Shown piece by piece: positions 13,297 to 40,364 of a stretch of 64,000 nt of DNA. Origin of the DNA: Minisyncoccota bacterium (GTDB lineage Bacteria; Patescibacteriota; Minisyncoccia; Phycocordibacterales; JBAYLF01); contig JBAYLF010000004.1 of the NCBI GenBank assembly GCA_041664205.1, positions 12,297 to 76,296 on the forward strand, given 5' to 3'. Made by a program: the position numbers and the translations under genes. The notes beneath the pieces are model-generated. The model made no database searches and was not told the origin of the DNA. It saw only the letters and a list, made by a program, of their open reading frames with translations. The stretch's first letter is position 1. Every line of letters starts with the position of its first letter.

Positions 13297-14526
13297 ATGT
13301 GTTACAATATAAGCATGATTCGGTCTCTTTTTAAAAAAATAGATTATGAAATTGTTCTTATTTTTGATATAGGAAGTGGAAGTGTAGAAGGTTCGATTGT
13401 AAAATTAGTAAAAAATGCGCTTCCAGAAATTTTGTATTCCTATAGAGCAGATCTTCCATTCAGAAAAACACGAAATGCAGAAAAGCTTACACTACTTATA
13501 TTCCAAGAATTAAAAAGCGTAGCAGCGCATCTATCAAAAGAAGGATTAAAACACCCTAATTTTACTAAATTAGAAAATAAAAAGATTGTAAAAAGCTTTT
13601 TAGTTTTTTCTTCTCCGTGGACACTCAATAAAACAAAAATCGTAACAATTTCAAACAAAAAAGAATTTCTAGTGGATAGCAATCTAGTTGATAAAACTAT
13701 TGAAAACGAAGAAAAAAATATTTTTGAATCTTTTCCAGAGTATGAATCGGAATCTTTGCAAATTATAGAAAAAAAAGCAGTTAGTATACTTCTAAATGGA
13801 TACGAAACCACTCTGCCTTATGGGCAAAAAACTAATGAAATCACAATGACCTTAGTTTTTAGCTTAATAACCCGCAGTTTAGCAGAGAAGTGCGAAGAAA
13901 TTACAAAAAAATATTTTCCTTTTACCCCCTCTGAAATTCTTTCTTTTTCAATGGTTTCATTTACCACACTTAGAGACATGTTTCCGGAAGAAAGAAACTT
14001 TATGCTTTTAGACATAGGATCTGAAGTGACGGAAATAACAATAGTTAGAAATAACGCAATAAACGAAGTAATCTCATTTCCTTCCGGAAAAAACCTACTA
14101 ATTCGCAACGTTATTTCAAAAATGAAGATAGAACACGAGATGGCGCTTTCACTATTAAATACATGGCTTGAAAAGCACACTGACCATATCTCTTCTAAAA
14201 AAGTATCTGATATAATCTCAGATACAGAAAAAGAATGGATATCAAGTTTTCAAAAAGCAGTGCTTTCTGATGAAAATAAGTTTTCCATCCCGCAAACCAT
14301 CTTTATAACAGCAGACAGTAATTCTGGAGAAGTTTTTGCACAATTTCTCAAAAACGAAAACATTGCACAATTCAATAAAACTCAAGGAAAATTCAAAACA
14401 TGGGTTATAGATAGAGAAAAACTACTTACAAAATGCATATGGAGAATTCCACATAGTAGCGAACCTTTCATTGCAATAGAAAGCATTTTTCTAAACAAAA
14501 TATTCAATTCGGATAAACAAAAATAA
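13297..14526 (+). CDS. actin-like ATPase fold protein (FtsA/PilM superfamily)
   Basis: Two phosphate-binding motifs: LIFDIGSGSVEGSIV and MLLDIGSEVTEITIV. The likely true start is the Met at 13315. Confidence 0.5.
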   Translation: MCYNISMIRSLFKKIDYEIVLIFDIGSGSVEGSIVKLVKNALPEILYSYRADLPFRKTRNAEKLTLLIFQELKSVAAHLSKEGLKHPNFTKLENKKIVKSFLVFSSPWTLNKTKIVTISNKKEFLVDSNLVDKTIENEEKNIFESFPEYESESLQIIEKKAVSILLNGYETTLPYGQKTNEITMTLVFSLITRSLAEKCEEITKKYFPFTPSEILSFSMVSFTTLRDMFPEERNFMLLDIGSEVTEITIVRNNAINEVISFPSGKNLLIRNVISKMKIEHEMALSLLNTWLEKHTDHISSKKVSDIISDTEKEWISSFQKAVLSDENKFSIPQTIFITADSNSGEVFAQFLKNENIAQFNKTQGKFKTWVIDREKLLTKCIWRIPHSSEPFIAIESIFLNKIFNSDKQK

Positions 14527-14544: not shown

Positions 14545-15942
14545 ATGCATAAAAAAATTCAAGATATTGTTATACCAAAAAAATCAATAAGAAATATTGC
14601 TATTCCTGAGCATAAAAAAACTTTTTTAGAAATTGAACCTGAACCAGTGCAAAGAAAAAAAGAAGAGGATAAAGATCAACCAAACATAATAAAGGTGCAC
14701 AAGGAAAAAATTGAAAAACACGATCTAGAAAAAGAATTAAAAAAGCATACATCCTATAAAAGACCTGACATACAAAAAAGCAAATTAAAATATTTGCTTT
14801 TAATTCCAGCAACTATCTTAATATTTTTTATTTTTTATTTTTTACTAGGAAAATTTAACGAAGTAATTGTTTATATAAATCCCAGACAAGAAACTGTTCA
14901 AATAAATAATTCTTTTTCTGCTCATAGCGCACCAGGTTCAGAAGTTCTTTCTTATAATGTAGTAACAATAAATGAAGAAATGATCGAAAATGTAGATCCT
15001 ACTGGAGAAAAAACTGGCGAATCACAATCAAGAGGACGTGTTGTTATCTACAACAATTATTCAAAAGCCAGCCAGAGATTAGTAAGAAACACAAGGCTAG
15101 AAACTCAAGATGGACTAATATATAAAATCATTGATTCAGTTACAATTCCAGGAAAAACTGTCGCAAATGGCAAAGATGTAGCTGGAAGCATAGAAGTTGA
15201 TGCTTTAGCTGAAAGTCCGGGGCCAGATTACAACATAGGCTTAGCAGATTTTACAATTCCAGGATTCAAAAGTGATCCTGAAAAATACAAAAATTTTTAC
15301 GCAAGATCAAAAACAAAAATGACTGGCGGTTATTCAGGTTTAATAAAGATCGTTTCAGACGAAAAAACTACAGAGGTTAGAAATAGACTTCAGACACAAT
15401 TAAAAGATGAACTCATAAAGAAAGTAAAGTCTCAAACTCCAGAAAATTTTATAACTTTTAATAACGCACAATTTTTCGAATTTGCTTCCGACGATCCTAT
15501 CTTGAACGGAAGCACTTTTACAATTAAACAAAGTGCTACTGTCTATGCTCTTATTTTCAAGAAAGATGATATTATGTCGATAATCGCTAAATCAAATATA
15601 AAAAATTATGACGGATTGCCAATAGAGATGCCCGATATTCAAAACGCTAATTTTGAATTAGTAACAAAGCAAGATAAAAAATCACAGGAAAACCTCACTC
15701 CGATCTGGAAAAGAGATGTTATCGATTTTACCTTAAAGGGAAAAACTGAAACTCTGTGGAAAACTGACGAAGACGCTTTCAAGAAAGATCTTGTTGGAAA
15801 AAATAGAAGCGAGTTAAATAGTGTAGTTTCAAAATATAAAGGAATAAAAAACATCCAAGTAGTAATAAAGCCATTCTGGTTACAGACATTTCCAGATGAT
15901 CCTCAGAAAATAAAGTTTCAAGGAGGCACTTACAATAATTAA
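14545..15942 (+). CDS. hypothetical single-pass membrane protein (Lys-rich cytoplasmic N-terminus, large extracytoplasmic domain)
   Basis: One TM helix (LLLIPATILIFFIFYFLLG). No family recognised. Adjacent to the actin-like ATPase gene. Confidence 0.5.
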   Translation: MHKKIQDIVIPKKSIRNIAIPEHKKTFLEIEPEPVQRKKEEDKDQPNIIKVHKEKIEKHDLEKELKKHTSYKRPDIQKSKLKYLLLIPATILIFFIFYFLLGKFNEVIVYINPRQETVQINNSFSAHSAPGSEVLSYNVVTINEEMIENVDPTGEKTGESQSRGRVVIYNNYSKASQRLVRNTRLETQDGLIYKIIDSVTIPGKTVANGKDVAGSIEVDALAESPGPDYNIGLADFTIPGFKSDPEKYKNFYARSKTKMTGGYSGLIKIVSDEKTTEVRNRLQTQLKDELIKKVKSQTPENFITFNNAQFFEFASDDPILNGSTFTIKQSATVYALIFKKDDIMSIIAKSNIKNYDGLPIEMPDIQNANFELVTKQDKKSQENLTPIWKRDVIDFTLKGKTETLWKTDEDAFKKDLVGKNRSELNSVVSKYKGIKNIQVVIKPFWLQTFPDDPQKIKFQGGTYNN

Positions 15943-21387: not shown

Positions 21388-22752
21388 ATGAAAAAATATA
21401 TTCTTTTTATTTTTTGTTCGCTGTTAGCTGTTAATTTATTATTTTGCGCGCCTCAAAAAGCTTCGGCAGCCTCTCGTGCAGCGGGAAGCGTTTCATATAG
21501 TGTAGATAATGGAAACGGATCAGTAACGCATTACACATTCTTTATAGTAGGAAAGGCAAAAGAAGTTTACCTCCTACTTTCAAATCCAGCAAGCACCTAT
21601 CAGTATTATTTTGCTCTTATGGGATATCCTTCTTGTGGAAACTTTACTATCTCACTAGTTGCTAAAACAACTTCATGTACTCCGCTTTATCAATGCAGTG
21701 GAAATGCTGTAGTCGAAAGATGCTCAGGAGCAACTCAGCAGTGCTCATACGGATGCTCTAACGGATCTTGTAATCCTATGCCTCCGACTCCACCACCTCC
21801 TCCACCAACTAATTTAAGTGGCTCATGCTCAACTGGTGGTAAAACTGCAAACTTCTCTTGGGTTAACGCTGCAGGCTACAACACAGTATACTTCCGGGCA
21901 GTAGATACAACATTATTCGGATGTGTAGCGCAAAACCTAAGTAACCTCTGGAATGAAGGAGTAGTAGGCACAACTTATTCTATTAATACAACACCTGGGC
22001 ACTCTTACTGCTGGTGGTTAAATACAAAAGCTTCCGATGGAAAATGGAGCACCGAAGCAAACACAAAAAACTTTACTTGTGAATGCGATAACGGCACTTC
22101 TAATCCTCCAACATGCACGAAATGCCCGAGTGGTTATAGCCTCATAAACAATGTCTGCACTCTTGTATGTTCTAACGGCGCTACAGATTATCCAACATGC
22201 ACCATATGTCCAATTGGCTATAATCTAATAAATAATATTTGCACTCCTGAATGTTCCAATGGGGCTTCTAATTATCCTACGTGCACTATATGTCCATCTG
22301 GATATACTTTAATAAATAATGCCTGCATTCCTCCTAGTTGCACTCCGAGCTACAGATGTAATGCCGACAACACAGGAGTAATAAATAGTTGCAACAACGG
22401 AACGACTCTATGCCCAACAGATCAAGTTTGCATCGAAGGTGCATGTTCTTCTTTGAAAATAAATAAATTTAATCCTAGTCCATCTCAAGTTCCAAAAAAT
22501 TCTGGATGTAATCTTGTATATGATATCTCAGGCGCACTATCGTGTAATATAACAGGAACAAACATTGGTGGGCAGGGAATTAACTCCATATCATTACCTC
22601 TGATCTCAGGCACAATAAGTAGCAGCACAAAGTCAGGACCCATTCAAACAAAAACAACATACACTCTGTCGTGCGCTGATACTGCTCATGTCATACATTC
22701 AAAGCAAGCAAACTGTTTGATGATGGTTGATATCATCTTCAATGAGTTCTAA
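21388..22752 (+). CDS. secreted Cys-rich repeat protein with poly-Pro linker
   Basis: Signal peptide (LLAVNLLFCAPQKASA). PPTPPPPPP linker. Tandem about 20-aa units CxxCPxGYxLINNxC(T). Confidence 0.7.
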   Translation: MKKYILFIFCSLLAVNLLFCAPQKASAASRAAGSVSYSVDNGNGSVTHYTFFIVGKAKEVYLLLSNPASTYQYYFALMGYPSCGNFTISLVAKTTSCTPLYQCSGNAVVERCSGATQQCSYGCSNGSCNPMPPTPPPPPPTNLSGSCSTGGKTANFSWVNAAGYNTVYFRAVDTTLFGCVAQNLSNLWNEGVVGTTYSINTTPGHSYCWWLNTKASDGKWSTEANTKNFTCECDNGTSNPPTCTKCPSGYSLINNVCTLVCSNGATDYPTCTICPIGYNLINNICTPECSNGASNYPTCTICPSGYTLINNACIPPSCTPSYRCNADNTGVINSCNNGTTLCPTDQVCIEGACSSLKINKFNPSPSQVPKNSGCNLVYDISGALSCNITGTNIGGQGINSISLPLISGTISSSTKSGPIQTKTTYTLSCADTAHVIHSKQANCLMMVDIIFNEF

Positions 22753-33917: not shown

Positions 33918-33989
33918 TGTCATTCCCGCGAAGGCGGGAATCTAGTTTCTGCCTGCTTAATCTGGATTCCCGCCTTCGCGGGAATGACA
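33918..33989. repeat. GC-rich palindromic repeat element, copy 1 (two inverted hairpin units)
   Basis: TGTCATTCCCGCGAAGGCGGGAATC-tagtttctgcctgcttaatctg-GATTCCCGCCTTCGCGGGAATGACA. Each unit is ATTCCC-N8-GGGAAT. Near-identical to 40316-40364. Confidence 0.7.
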
Positions 33990-37879: not shown

Positions 37880-37907
37880 ACAAAAATAATGCTTTTTAAA
37901 AGCATTT
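37880..37907 (-). terminator. rho-independent terminator downstream of the pilin operon
   Basis: aatgcttttt-aaaagcatt palindrome with a T-run on the - strand. Confidence 0.55.
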
Positions 37908-37986: not shown

Positions 37987-38484
37987 TTATTCATTACAAT
38001 CTAGTTTTTTATTAGTTACAGATTTTATATCTTTTCCATCTACTACGAATTCGCAATTTCCAGTACCAGTAGTAGAAGTATCCGCGATACAGTAATAATA
38101 AAGTGAACCATAGCCTGGACTAGGACGTCGTAAGGTAATTCTTACAACAATACCGCCAGTCACGATCCAATTTTCCCAATCATAAGTCCAGCCACTGCAT
38201 GGCGGAGTCGGCCAGCTTTTTAAATATTTCGAAACAAATCTTGGTGGTGAATTTGGACCAACATCGGTAGCATAATTATTGTTATCATTGTAATCAAGAT
38301 TTGCTGCTACTCCTATAGAATTCATTGTTTCTAAAACTTGGGCAAATCTTGCTTTGCTACGGGAACTTTTTACGTTTACCTCTATGATACTTGAAAGCAA
38401 CATAATAATAGAAATCACCACGAGTAATTCAATTAAGGTGAAACCTCTTTTTTTTATTTTTTTTAATGTTTCTCGGTTGTGCAT
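37987..38484 (-). CDS. type IV pilin / pseudopilin (prepilin-type N-terminal cleavage/methylation domain)
   Basis: Class III signal: KRGFTLIELLVVISIIMLL. Confidence 0.8.
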   Translation of the reverse strand: MHNRETLKKIKKRGFTLIELLVVISIIMLLSSIIEVNVKSSRSKARFAQVLETMNSIGVAANLDYNDNNNYATDVGPNSPPRFVSKYLKSWPTPPCSGWTYDWENWIVTGGIVVRITLRRPSPGYGSLYYYCIADTSTTGTGNCEFVVDGKDIKSVTNKKLDCNE

Positions 38485-38496
38485 ATTTTAAAATTT

Positions 38497-38778
38497 TCAC
38501 AACCCGTGACCAGTTTCCATATAAGATTTTTGCTCAGGAGTCATTGGTGATATTTTTTTTCCTACATTTCCACCAAATAATAAAAACAGTGAAATAATAA
38601 ATACTAATATTGAAAACCCGATTAAGATATAATTTGCCTGCTTTTCATTAATATTTCCACCAGAATATTTTATAATCCATTGAATCATTTTTGGAGATTG
38701 TGCTTGAAAAGACTGAACAGAGCGTTGCAACTCATCATCAGCAAAAGTTACTTTCGATGATTTATTATTTTGATCCAT
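38497..38778 (-). CDS. small hypothetical membrane protein
   Basis: 93 aa with one TM helix. Lies inside the pilin operon. Confidence 0.5.
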   Translation of the reverse strand: MDQNNKSSKVTFADDELQRSVQSFQAQSPKMIQWIIKYSGGNINEKQANYILIGFSILVFIISLFLLFGGNVGKKISPMTPEQKSYMETGHGL

Positions 38779-38820
38779 TTTTTTAGACTACGTTAATAAA
38801 ATAAAAATTTACCTACAAAA

Positions 38821-40176
38821 TTACTGACAAGCCCCAGCTTCCGTAGTTAATGTTCCAGCATTACTTACATATAATCTATAAGCTGTTCCATTAGGCGAAA
38901 ACATCTGAACACAGGAGCCGTTTGTAGTAGATTGTTTTGTTCCGATAAAAACAGTAGTTGTTGCAGTGGTTACAGATGGTGAAATGGAAACAATAGCTGA
39001 TGGTGAACTGGAACCAATTCCTAAATTACCAGAAGAATTAATAACGGAATTCAAAACACCTGTGGTGCTAAAAACATCTAAAATGTTTGCCGTTTGAGAA
39101 GCAACAGGTCTAATAGCTAATGTTGTAGATGCGATGTCGGTTCCTGTTATTGAAAGTTTGGCATATGGAGTAGTGGTACTAATACCTAAATTTCCAGTAG
39201 CTACTGCTGCGCTTGAAGAAGTGAGTCCTCCGTAAATTCCTGTGCCGTAGATAAGATTTCCGATGTTTAATTGTTGATTGACTGTAGTAGAAGGAGCGTT
39301 AACATTTGCACCTATGATGATGCTGGATGAAGCGGTGGTTATATTGTATCCCGCCGAATACCCTAAGGCAGTATTATTAGAACCAAAAGTGTTGGAATAA
39401 AGAGCTGCCCTACCTTGAGCAGTATTTTTGTAACCTATGGTGTTGTTAACAAGTGAATCAACACCATCGGCTGTATTGTACCAGCCAGTAGTATTGATCA
39501 TAAGAGCTTGATTACCATTAGCTGTATTCCACCAACCTGTAGTGTTACCATAAAGTGCAACCGCGCCATTAGCTGTATTACCAGAGCCTGTAGTATTAAG
39601 GTCAAGAGATGCCCAACCATTGGCAACATTGTAGTTGCCTGTAGTATTAGCGTACAAAGAGACTCTGCCAAAAGCTGTATTATTAGCACCTGTAGTATTA
39701 TTATAAAAAGACTGAAAACCAACAGCAGTATTTTGATCTGCTGCGTTATTACTAGCTGTTGAACTGGAAAATCCAGCTTGATAACCAACAAAAGTATTTA
39801 GTGTAGCACCTGCTACTACATTCTTTCCTGCCTGATAACCAAGTTTAGTATTTTGATCTGTATTATTAAAATCAATTAAATCGTAAACGCCTAAGAGGCT
39901 GTTTGGCGTTGTTGTTCCAATACCTACACTTCCTCCACCTGTTGCAAACGTTGCTCCGCCTGCGAATGTAGATGTGCTTGTTATTGTATTTACTGACAAA
40001 GCGCTTGTTAATACGCTATTACCTGTTACAGATAAATTTCCACCTACTGTAGTATCACCCGTTGATATTATGTTTGTTCCTATTGATGTTGCTGATACAA
40101 CTCCGGCTACAATAAAAAGAGATAAAGAAAGTATAGCAATTGTAAAAATATTTTCCTTAGTAATATATGACTTCAT
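38821..40176 (-). CDS. large secreted Gly/Asn/Thr-rich repeat protein (YadA-head-like or tail-fibre-like NTAxG repeats); putative adhesin
   Basis: Signal peptide, then about 17-residue tandem units (NTANGAVALYGNTTGWW / NTANGNQALMINTTGWY / NTADGVDSLVNNTIGYK ...). C-terminal Cys pair. Confidence 0.65.
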   Translation of the reverse strand: MKSYITKENIFTIAILSLSLFIVAGVVSATSIGTNIISTGDTTVGGNLSVTGNSVLTSALSVNTITSTSTFAGGATFATGGGSVGIGTTTPNSLLGVYDLIDFNNTDQNTKLGYQAGKNVVAGATLNTFVGYQAGFSSSTASNNAADQNTAVGFQSFYNNTTGANNTAFGRVSLYANTTGNYNVANGWASLDLNTTGSGNTANGAVALYGNTTGWWNTANGNQALMINTTGWYNTADGVDSLVNNTIGYKNTAQGRAALYSNTFGSNNTALGYSAGYNITTASSSIIIGANVNAPSTTVNQQLNIGNLIYGTGIYGGLTSSSAAVATGNLGISTTTPYAKLSITGTDIASTTLAIRPVASQTANILDVFSTTGVLNSVINSSGNLGIGSSSPSAIVSISPSVTTATTTVFIGTKQSTTNGSCVQMFSPNGTAYRLYVSNAGTLTTEAGACQ

Positions 40177-40315
40177 GATAATTGAAGTTAAATTTAAATA
40201 ATTAACTGATGTCGTTTATTATAACAAATTTGTTTGATTAGGAACAAAGTAGCTGTGGAACAAAAAACTCACGAATGAATCGCGAATTTTTTTGTAATTT
40301 CCACAAAAACGGAGA

Positions 40316-40364
40316 TCTAATTTCACTCTGCTTAATCTGGATTCCCGCTTTCGCGGGAATGACA
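40316..40364. repeat. GC-rich palindromic repeat element, copy 2 (single hairpin unit)
   Basis: tctaatttcactctgcttaatctgGATTCCCGCTTTCGCGGGAATGACA. Differs by a few mismatches from 33941-33989. Confidence 0.7.

Follow-up and report, generated by a model that had tools for sequence, protein, structure and literature searches.

A stretch of 64,000 nucleotides (nt) from a Minisyncoccota bacterium (contig JBAYLF010000004.1, positions 12,297 to 76,296; hereafter the window, to which all coordinates refer) carries three genes in the same orientation on the - strand, encoding a tail-fibre-like protein of 451 amino acids (aa), a 93-aa membrane protein and a type IV prepilin of 165 aa. With moderate confidence, the locus is viewed as two functionally separate units that are adjacent by happenstance and probably co-transcribed: a Sec-exported, tail-fibre-related fibre and a pair formed by the small membrane protein and the prepilin. 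The original prediction for this DNA had described a type IV pilin operon led by the large protein as a candidate pilus-associated adhesin. The three co-oriented minus-strand genes and their products were recovered as described, and a single transcript is plausible in this genome; what is not supported is the leading role of the fibre as an adhesin associated with the pilus. The genes are:

37987-38484, - strand: gene of the 165-aa type IV prepilin, with a 14-residue leader, cleavage between G and FTLIE, and the sequence WPTPPC..WTYDWENW
38497-38778, - strand: gene of the 93-aa single-pass membrane protein with the motif PKIxQWxIKYSGGxxxxEKQANYxLIGF, the conserved upstream partner of pilins
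38821-40176, - strand: gene of the 451-aa putative surface fibre, tail-fibre-like and similar to the non-S74 form of the mosaic adhesive trimer (MAT) proteins

The separation of the two units was tested reciprocally over 75 related loci, 49 of the 93-aa/pilin pair and 26 of the fibre, the latter comprising 24 metagenomic loci and two look-ups (L003 and L004). A fibre relative within 4 kb was found at none of the pair loci (0/49), and a prepilin motif, a relative of the 93-aa protein or a relative of the pilin at none of the fibre loci (0/26); the adjacency is therefore specific to this genome. The three-gene arrangement is, by comparison of gene order, idiosyncratic to it, and the neighbourhood of fibre and pilin, judged in the same way, gives no support to a pilus-adhesin system. 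Nothing indicates that the fibre depends on a pilus.

An explanation in which the fibre is a pilus-associated adhesin, presented by the pilin and the 93-aa protein or cooperating with them in a functional operon, is quite unlikely, although several features point towards it. The gaps between the co-oriented genes measure 42 nt (fibre gene to 93-aa gene) and 12 nt (93-aa gene to pilin gene), neither a promoter-like site nor a hairpin separates the first two, and a single extended -10 element upstream is matched by a hairpin and U-run after the pilin gene. Moreover, type IV pili are widespread in the candidate phyla radiation (CPR) and implicated in host interaction (PMC6744442; PMC11665869), they are reported to be essential in a Saccharibacterium (PMC11665869), and an interplay of MAT fibres with type IV pili has been raised as possible (Caulton et al. 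2024, PMC10769870). Against this stand the failure of synteny in both directions, the relocation of the 93-aa/pilin pair as a pair without the fibre, and the fibre sequence itself. It lacks a prepilin signal, the sole prepilin motif of the window being located at 38448, and therefore cannot be incorporated as a pilin. The PilY1/PilC tip adhesins are, like the fibre, large secreted proteins encoded next to a pilin gene; the fibre differs from them in that it accompanies one pilin rather than a minor-pilin set, its linkage is not conserved and the Neisseria_PilC/PilY1 domain is absent (Pfam, E<=1). Neither PilB, PilC, PilT or PilD nor any other pilin was found in the 64-kb window and about 10 kb of left flank. 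For the claimed pilus association, nothing beyond the probable co-transcription in this single genome lends support.

Thr, Gly, Ser and Asn are abundant in the fibre, and charged residues amount to only ~5%. The parts of the protein, from N-terminus to C-terminus, are:

40090-40176, - strand: residues 1-29 (MKSYITKEN-IFTIAILSLSLFIVAGVV-SA/TS), a Sec signal peptide or N-terminal membrane anchor as predicted from inspection and a modelled helix
39880-39933, - strand: residues 82-99, GSVGIGTTTPNSLLGVYD, first GxxGIGTTTPxxLL motif, ahead of the conserved repeat entry DLIDFNNTD...LGYQAGKN
39274-39798, - strand: residues 127-301, array of 17-residue NTAxGxxALxxNTTGxx repeats
39142-39195, - strand: residues 328-345, second capping-type motif GNLGISTTTPYAKLSITG
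38977-39030, - strand: residues 383-400, third capping-type motif GNLGIGSSSPSAIVSISP
38824-38964, - strand: residues 405-451, small C-terminal tip with four beta-strands predicted by AlphaFold2 (AF2) and no PF13884

A signal peptide had been proposed for the large protein, and the N-terminus is in agreement with one: a basic start and an 18-residue hydrophobic stretch are followed by VSA/TS, and AF2 places a helix at residues 7-28. The assignment was made by inspection, without a dedicated predictor. The motif A-[AST]-TTI[GS]T.I.TGG is found C-terminal to the hydrophobic stretch in homologs P0012, P0016, P0007, P0019 and P0056. Residues 30-100 are of low complexity and are modelled with a predicted local distance difference test (pLDDT) score of 30-44. 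The proposed NTAxG repeats of about 17 residues are well supported, as the lag-17 identity across residues 120-300 reaches 44% and the lag-34 identity 39%, compared with at most 19% among 2000 shuffles. Eight 17-mers stand exactly in phase across residues 149-284 (nt 39325-39732; NTAVGFQSFYNNTTGAN ... NTALGYSAGYNITTASS), degenerate units flank them at both ends, and the array closes with the conserved terminator NITT..SIIIGANVNAPS. Since no DNA-level tandem repeat was found in the fibre gene, the repeats are considered old.

In total, three GxxGI[GS][TS][TS][TS]P motifs are present, the first of which, together with the repeat entry, also occurs in the S74-bearing homolog P0052. The tip takes the site that is occupied by the S74 chaperone in most homologs. 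Its modelled strands span residues 409-417, 420-426, 432-437 and 443-447 (pLDDT ~70-76), and C422 and C450, the C-terminal Cys pair noticed earlier, are the sole cysteines of the protein; the same Cys-pair ending is common to P0012, P0056, P0019, P0007 and P0016. Within the AF2 monomer the repeats reach a pLDDT of 63-80, with two short strands per 17 residues; repeats and tip are the best parts of the model. A search of the ~76 kb that are available for this genome revealed no paralog of the fibre.

Database searches place the fibre among tail-fibre-like proteins. Pfam and NCBIfam scans returned no match (Pfam to E<=1), and the protein belongs to no housekeeping family. Peptidase_S74 (PF13884) is absent from it at E<=1 and likewise from P0012, P0007 and P0019, and an SLH or S-layer domain was not found in the Pfam scan. 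Matches were obtained to three PHROG families, all of virion structural or tail spike type (E=2.7e-23, 1.7e-18 and 8.6e-11). The repeat module is common to more than 4100 proteins, most of the 120 listed carrying Peptidase_S74 at the C-terminus, and homologs are 40-60% identical across the module, over 30-65% of the query. Other domains found in these homologs include Mtd_N, Por_Secre_tail (sorting by the type IX secretion system), FGE-sulfatase (C-type-lectin-like) and YadA_head. The best full-length relative is ~42-49% identical, and conservation is lacking for the gene as well as for its location. The entry module (GSVGIGTTTPNSLLGVYDLIDFNNTD..LGYQAGKN) also occurs in proteins that bear S74 and in homologs under the name Omnitrophica, as does the exit module (NITT..SIIIGANVNAPS...QLNIGNLIYG); C-terminal to the latter, two segments headed GNLGISTTTPYAKLSITG and GNLGIGSSSPSAIVSISP precede the 45-residue Cys-pair module.

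Structural databases were addressed in two ways. A fibre family profile of 20 members, searched against 177,635 distinct PDB sequences at E<=1, matched a single group, the C-terminal fibre domains of MAT proteins of Bdellovibrio bacteriovorus (8OND/Bd2133, E=3e-7; 8OJN, 3.8e-4; 8OML, 5e-3; 8OL4/Bd2439, 0.011), with matches running via the GNxG[IL]GTxAPTxxL motif and adjoining strands. The single fibre sequence searched against PDB sequences gave nanobody matches only, which were dismissed as spurious. Foldseek against BFVD returned 11 matches (E<=1e-3, 24-37% identity) to phage S74/tail-fibre and giant-virus fibre proteins, among them proteins annotated with an 'intramolecular chaperone auto-processing domain'. 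The 451-aa protein is therefore placed, plausibly, in the class of cellular, non-S74, tail-fibre-like (MAT-like) fibres; trimerisation, surface display and ligand binding would be expected from its relatives, and an adhesin or receptor-binding role is reasonable. In this respect the original label of candidate adhesin is retained, as the protein is repeat-built, probably secreted and tail-fibre-like.

Two further observations concern loci of fibre relatives. Many of the metagenomic relatives (L064-L087; e.g. L066:1325-8809, L072:215-8668 and L082:2-7432) are giant open reading frames (ORFs) of ~1200-2800 aa with the same repeat module, and the 451-aa fibre is therefore regarded as a minimal version of a size-variable family. 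At L004, three consecutive toxin-antitoxin (TA) pairs of the nucleotidyltransferase/HEPN type (HepT-like) lie downstream of fibre homolog P0007 (L004:7914-10436), and after them comes a fourth related pair whose domain matches are weaker; with HicAB and a further nucleotidyltransferase/HEPN-type pair upstream, this CPR contig holds a dense TA island.

The closest known system is the non-S74 subgroup of the MAT proteins (Bd2133/8OND, Bd2439/8OL4 and Bd1334), which form trimeric, phage-tail-fibre-like fibres on the surface of a predator and exist both with and without S74, with swapped tips (PMC10769870). MAT proteins and the fibre are both cellular and tail-fibre-like, belong to bacteria with a life on other cells and have a signal peptide, which in the fibre is predicted; they share the GNxG[IL]GTxxPxxxL motif with adjacent beta segments (8OND, E=3e-7). 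Both families include S74 and non-S74 forms with exchangeable tips, and the tip of Bdellovibrio Bd1334 holds a single disulfide, as the fibre tip probably does. Beta-helical segments with conserved capping-loop motifs are described for MAT proteins, and the fibre has three motifs of this kind with adjacent strands that the family profile aligns to them; the motif presumably corresponds to the published capping loop, whose consensus V-G-G/N-pi-x-x-P-x-x-x-L differs by one residue in spacing. In contrast to MAT proteins, the fibre is short (451 versus ~1000 aa), has a tip of only ~45 residues, is built on a shaft of 17-residue NTAxG repeats without a solved counterpart and belongs to a monoderm CPR bacterium rather than to Bdellovibrio.

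The S74 phage tail fibres and tailspikes (K1F endosialidase, T5 pb1) and the bacterial 'tail fiber domain-containing proteins' of Bacteroidota and other groups have a homologous repeat module, as reflected in the PHROG and BFVD matches. The fibre has their shaft without their S74 chaperone and differs further by its predicted signal peptide and its chromosomal housekeeping context. Here a phage origin of the gene has to be weighed, either as a remnant tail fibre or as part of a phage- or tailocin-like particle. The virion matches in PHROG and BFVD and one relative in an IMG/VR contig are in line with it, but no phage genes lie nearby, and the flanking genes are housekeeping genes (dnaK, dnaJ, trpS and aspS), for which reason the fibre gene is not considered part of a prophage and a prophage origin was rejected on gene context. 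The signal-peptide-like N-terminus is absent from virion fibres, a tip with a Cys pair suggests an oxidising environment outside the cytoplasm, and the ORF is intact with its own promoter-like element. Overall, such an origin appears very improbable.

Of the two likenesses drawn in the original prediction, that to tail fibres is upheld by the PHROG, MAT and BFVD matches and by the more than 4100 homologs, whereas that to the YadA head (PF05658) is superficial. It consists of short Gly/Asn/Thr/Ala-rich repeats with two strands each; the period is 17 rather than 14 residues, neither PF05658 nor a YadA anchor is present (Pfam, E<=1), and the C-terminus is instead the 45-residue Cys-pair module. 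Some fibre homologs are labelled 'trimeric autotransporter adhesin' by the Joint Genome Institute, and true YadA_head repeats are present in another part of P0001. Unlike YadA bearers, the CPR bacterium studied here has no outer membrane (PMC6744442, PMC11665869). A structural role in the envelope, as an S-layer-like or cell-wall lattice protein, would suit the low-charge, Thr/Ser/Gly/Asn-rich composition, the probable signal peptide and the housekeeping and cell-envelope gene context. It is nonetheless rather improbable, as the relatives are overwhelmingly tail-fibre, S74 and MAT proteins with swapped tips (FGE-sulfatase, Mtd), typical of receptor-binding proteins, while no SLH or S-layer domain was found, orthologs are poorly conserved (~42-49%), and gene and position are not conserved.

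The second unit is formed by the 93-aa protein and the prepilin, which comparative data indicate to be a conserved unit. The 165-aa protein is, from its sequence features, a true type IV prepilin: the leader MHNRETLKKIKKRG is followed by FTLIE, PF07963 N_methyl is matched with 32.2 bits (E=6.8e-8) against a cutoff of 21.2 and TIGR02532 with 25.9 bits against one of 16.3, as expected from the earlier assignment, and G14, F15 and E19 are invariant in 30 homologs. Pilins of the window type have four invariant Cys (96, 132, 144 and 163). Such a set of Cys is consistent with oxidative folding outside the cell, and the cassette pilin of one relative has a VKOR (PF07884) gene as its immediate 3' neighbour (L010:5811-6233).

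The 93-aa protein is predicted by AF2 to have one transmembrane (TM) helix at residues 45-68 (pLDDT ~90) plus a short helix, which agrees with its description as a membrane protein. Its family counts 1391 cluster representatives (50% identity clustering, E<=1e-3), and the best 150 of these, 62-163 aa in length, are without exception stand-alone proteins. Their core, PKIxQWxIKYSGGxxKxEKQANYxLIGF, hardly varies and continues into the TM helix; the acidic N-terminus (MDQNNE...) is conserved, and the short extracytoplasmic tail is variable. No relative was found in Pfam, NCBIfam, PDB (profile search) or IMG/VR, and the family is so far known almost only from metagenome-assembled genomes of CPR/Patescibacteria. 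Proteins of the window are listed at NCBI under 'Candidatus Paceibacterota bacterium'; in NCBI taxonomy, Candidatus Paceibacterota is a synonym of the phylum Minisyncoccota, formerly CPR/Patescibacteria. A scan of one genome per species across 185,579 bacterial and archaeal species identified the 49 loci with 54 gene copies, nearly all under Parcubacteria/Paceibacteria-type names (Nomura-, Giovannoni-, Kaiser-, Yonath-, Campbell-, Zambryski-, Portnoy- and Komeilibacteria). In 49 of the 52 evaluable copies, which are those with sufficient sequence 3' of the gene, a G-F-T-L-I-E prepilin motif follows 11-95 nt after the stop codon (273 nt in one case), and most loci have no second prepilin within 4 kb. 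The spacing within the pair is often -4 to +15 nt, which suggests translational coupling. Two or three cassettes, some of them arranged in tandem, occur in several of the genomes.

The surroundings of the pair change from genome to genome. Its upstream gene may be lysS, rplS, another pilin gene or a tRNA gene: at L009, which is the closest among the relatives with context, it is flanked by lysS and mraZ, at L010 it follows rplS and at L005-L008 two other pilin genes, and at L006 it stands beside a pilin-gene cluster that ends in a T2SSF gene ~5 kb away. Between lysS and mraZ of the present genome, a queuosine-salvage gene is found in place of such a pair, from which it follows that the pair moved as a unit. 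The globular domains of the paired pilins are likewise diverse: 34 of 45 fall into one GspG-like cluster and the others into ten further unrelated groups, the WPTPPC..WTYDWENW type of the window being different again, so that more than ten unrelated pilin C-domains are paired with the 93-aa family.

Two side observations relate to these cassettes. Often they lie directly 3' of a tRNA gene (L024, L025, L029, L043, L048 and L051), and the tRNAs differ (Leu-GAG, Val-TAC, Arg-TCG, Ala-CGC, Val-CAC and Ala-GGC); together with the multi-copy state, these varied neighbours hint at a relocating cassette. In addition, a conserved noncoding leader is found ~100 nt 5' of the 93-aa-family gene at L017, L019, L023, L024, L025, L027, L031, L035, L037, L047 and L051 (e.g. 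L019:3900-4003). It consists of CTTGCG, a poly-G run of 5-11 G, [CT]GATAGTGG-TAAAAT and a 7-bp hairpin (GTTGTGG-N10-CTGCAAC) ahead of the ATG. Base-pairing of this putative hairpin holds in 98.7% of cells, and one change is compensatory (shuffle control, 32-44 of 500); no match for the leader was found in Rfam. Since the poly-G run lies in the promoter spacer, phase variation by strand slippage is conceivable. The window's own cassette is without the poly-G leader.

In Pseudomonas aeruginosa, the pilin accessory genes for TfpO, TfpW, TfpX, TfpY and TfpZ are located next to pilA. These resemble the 93-aa gene in being genes of small membrane proteins that are tightly linked to a particular pilin gene, move together with it and have a presumed aiding role in assembly or modification of the cognate pilin. 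In contrast, the 93-aa gene lies upstream of its pilin and the Pseudomonas genes downstream, and one conserved family accompanies many unrelated pilin domains, so that the likeness is one of logic only.

For the favoured reading of two separate units, the following mechanism is proposed. The fibre would be exported by the Sec pathway and would comprise, after its signal peptide or anchor, a stalk of low complexity, then a capping motif ahead of some ten beta repeats of 17 residues, then two GNxGIGTTTPxxKL-capped beta segments and a 45-residue tip in which one probable disulfide replaces Peptidase_S74. By homology with S74 and MAT fibres, the product is most likely an elongated, probably trimeric cell-surface fibre, and ligands on host or partner cells would be bound by its variable tip. 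The bitopic 93-aa protein, in turn, is suggested to act on the N-terminal helix or leader of the membrane prepilin, because this is the only part that the paired pilins share; it might hold the prepilin, for example, or hand it to the assembly machinery. As to its identity, a prepilin chaperone, an assembly-platform adaptor and a sensor are put forward with low confidence.

Several points weigh against this reading. The AF2 monomer model of the fibre is poor (mean pLDDT 56.5) and a PDB Foldseek search with it was not significant (best E=0.056, TM-score 0.11), and the fold and the trimeric state are therefore derived from sequence relatives only. For the most part, the PDB profile matches depend on one short motif rich in Gly and Thr (per-domain E values of ~0.02), and the N-terminal beta-rich domain of ~130 aa that defines MAT proteins was not detected in the fibre, no full-length MAT sequence having been compared. 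Furthermore, the fibre and 93-aa genes, 42 nt apart without a terminator, look like one transcript, which makes co-expression and hence some functional cooperation of fibre and pilin pair possible in this organism. Finally, the role proposed for the 93-aa protein is speculative.

A more far-reaching scenario builds on this possible cooperation. In it, the 93-aa protein represents a possible new class of membrane partners dedicated to pilins, part of a self-contained, relocating and often multi-copy cassette whose alternative pilins could be switched on and off (about a fifth of related loci have the promoter with the poly-G spacer and the leader hairpin), and such a cassette would here have been captured behind the fibre promoter, giving a co-expressed attachment module in which fibre and pilus could act together. 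This scenario is unlikely. Under the favoured reading of separate units, the fibre class is already known (MAT/tail-fibre-like), while the 93-aa family is large, uncharacterised and pilin-linked, and its strict pairing with diverse pilins points to an unrecognised accessory step in type IV pilin handling in this lineage. As far as the literature was searched, tail-fibre-like fibres have not been discussed in the CPR lineage. A chromosomal signal-peptide fibre with an exchangeable tip represents a concrete candidate host-recognition determinant in CPR; it parallels the prey-recognition MAT fibres of Bdellovibrio and could serve as bait or antigen for host finding. The finding that it is unlinked to the pilus prevents the spread of a wrong 'pilus adhesin operon' annotation.

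The fibre, 93-aa and pilin genes probably form a single transcript in this genome. The elements that bound it are:

40341-40360, - strand: GC-rich palindrome ATTCCCGCGAAAGCGGGAAT, just 3' of the dnaJ stop codon (-17.2 kcal/mol, z=-5.3)
40218-40226, - strand: extended -10 promoter-like element TGTTATAAT, 41 nt 5' of the fibre ATG, read directly from the sequence
37881-37907, - strand: weak A/U-rich hairpin followed by UUAUUUUUG, 3' of the pilin gene (-6 kcal/mol, z=-1.4; weak evidence)

The element TGTTATAAT may mark the start of the transcription unit; a consensus promoter scan did not include it, its -35 being poor. The 42-nt spacer between the fibre and 93-aa genes contains no promoter-like site, terminator or structure, and the hairpin with the U-run UUAUUUUUG is the probable end of the unit. 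Upstream, the palindrome ATTCCCGCGAAAGCGGGAAT probably ends or insulates the dnaK-dnaJ transcript. The palindrome ATTCCCGCGAA[AG]GCGGGAAT has three copies in the window (40341-40360, 33922-33941 and 33966-33985), with none expected by chance. The copies at 33922-33941 and 33966-33985 form an inverted pair just upstream of a called scpB gene, and the element resembles repetitive extragenic palindromic (REP) sequences.

The wider neighbourhood has a G+C content of ~34-36%. On the same strand, grpE, dnaK and dnaJ lie upstream of the fibre gene and trpS and aspS downstream of the pilin gene; other scanned ORFs of the window are mostly housekeeping genes, including tRNA synthetases, murG, ftsW, mraY, penicillin-binding proteins, dnaB and recR. 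The window is part of a metagenomic contig of 90.5 kb (ENA ERZ27249449 k141_229602), and two further contigs with these genes are 100% identical to the window. An ORF of 409 aa at 13297-14526 (+) is weakly FtsA/actin-like (E ~0.01-0.02) and is followed by a 465-aa single-pass membrane protein without a family (14545-15942, +). The two could be a divergent FtsA- or PilM-like pair; PilM identity was not called for the former, as the FtsA/actin similarity is too weak. Another candidate surface protein is encoded at 21388-22752 (+): this Cys-rich protein of 454 aa, with a weak match to DUF4215 only (E=0.0055), has a signal peptide and ~4 repeats of the form CxNGxxxYPTCTxCPxGYxLINNxC.

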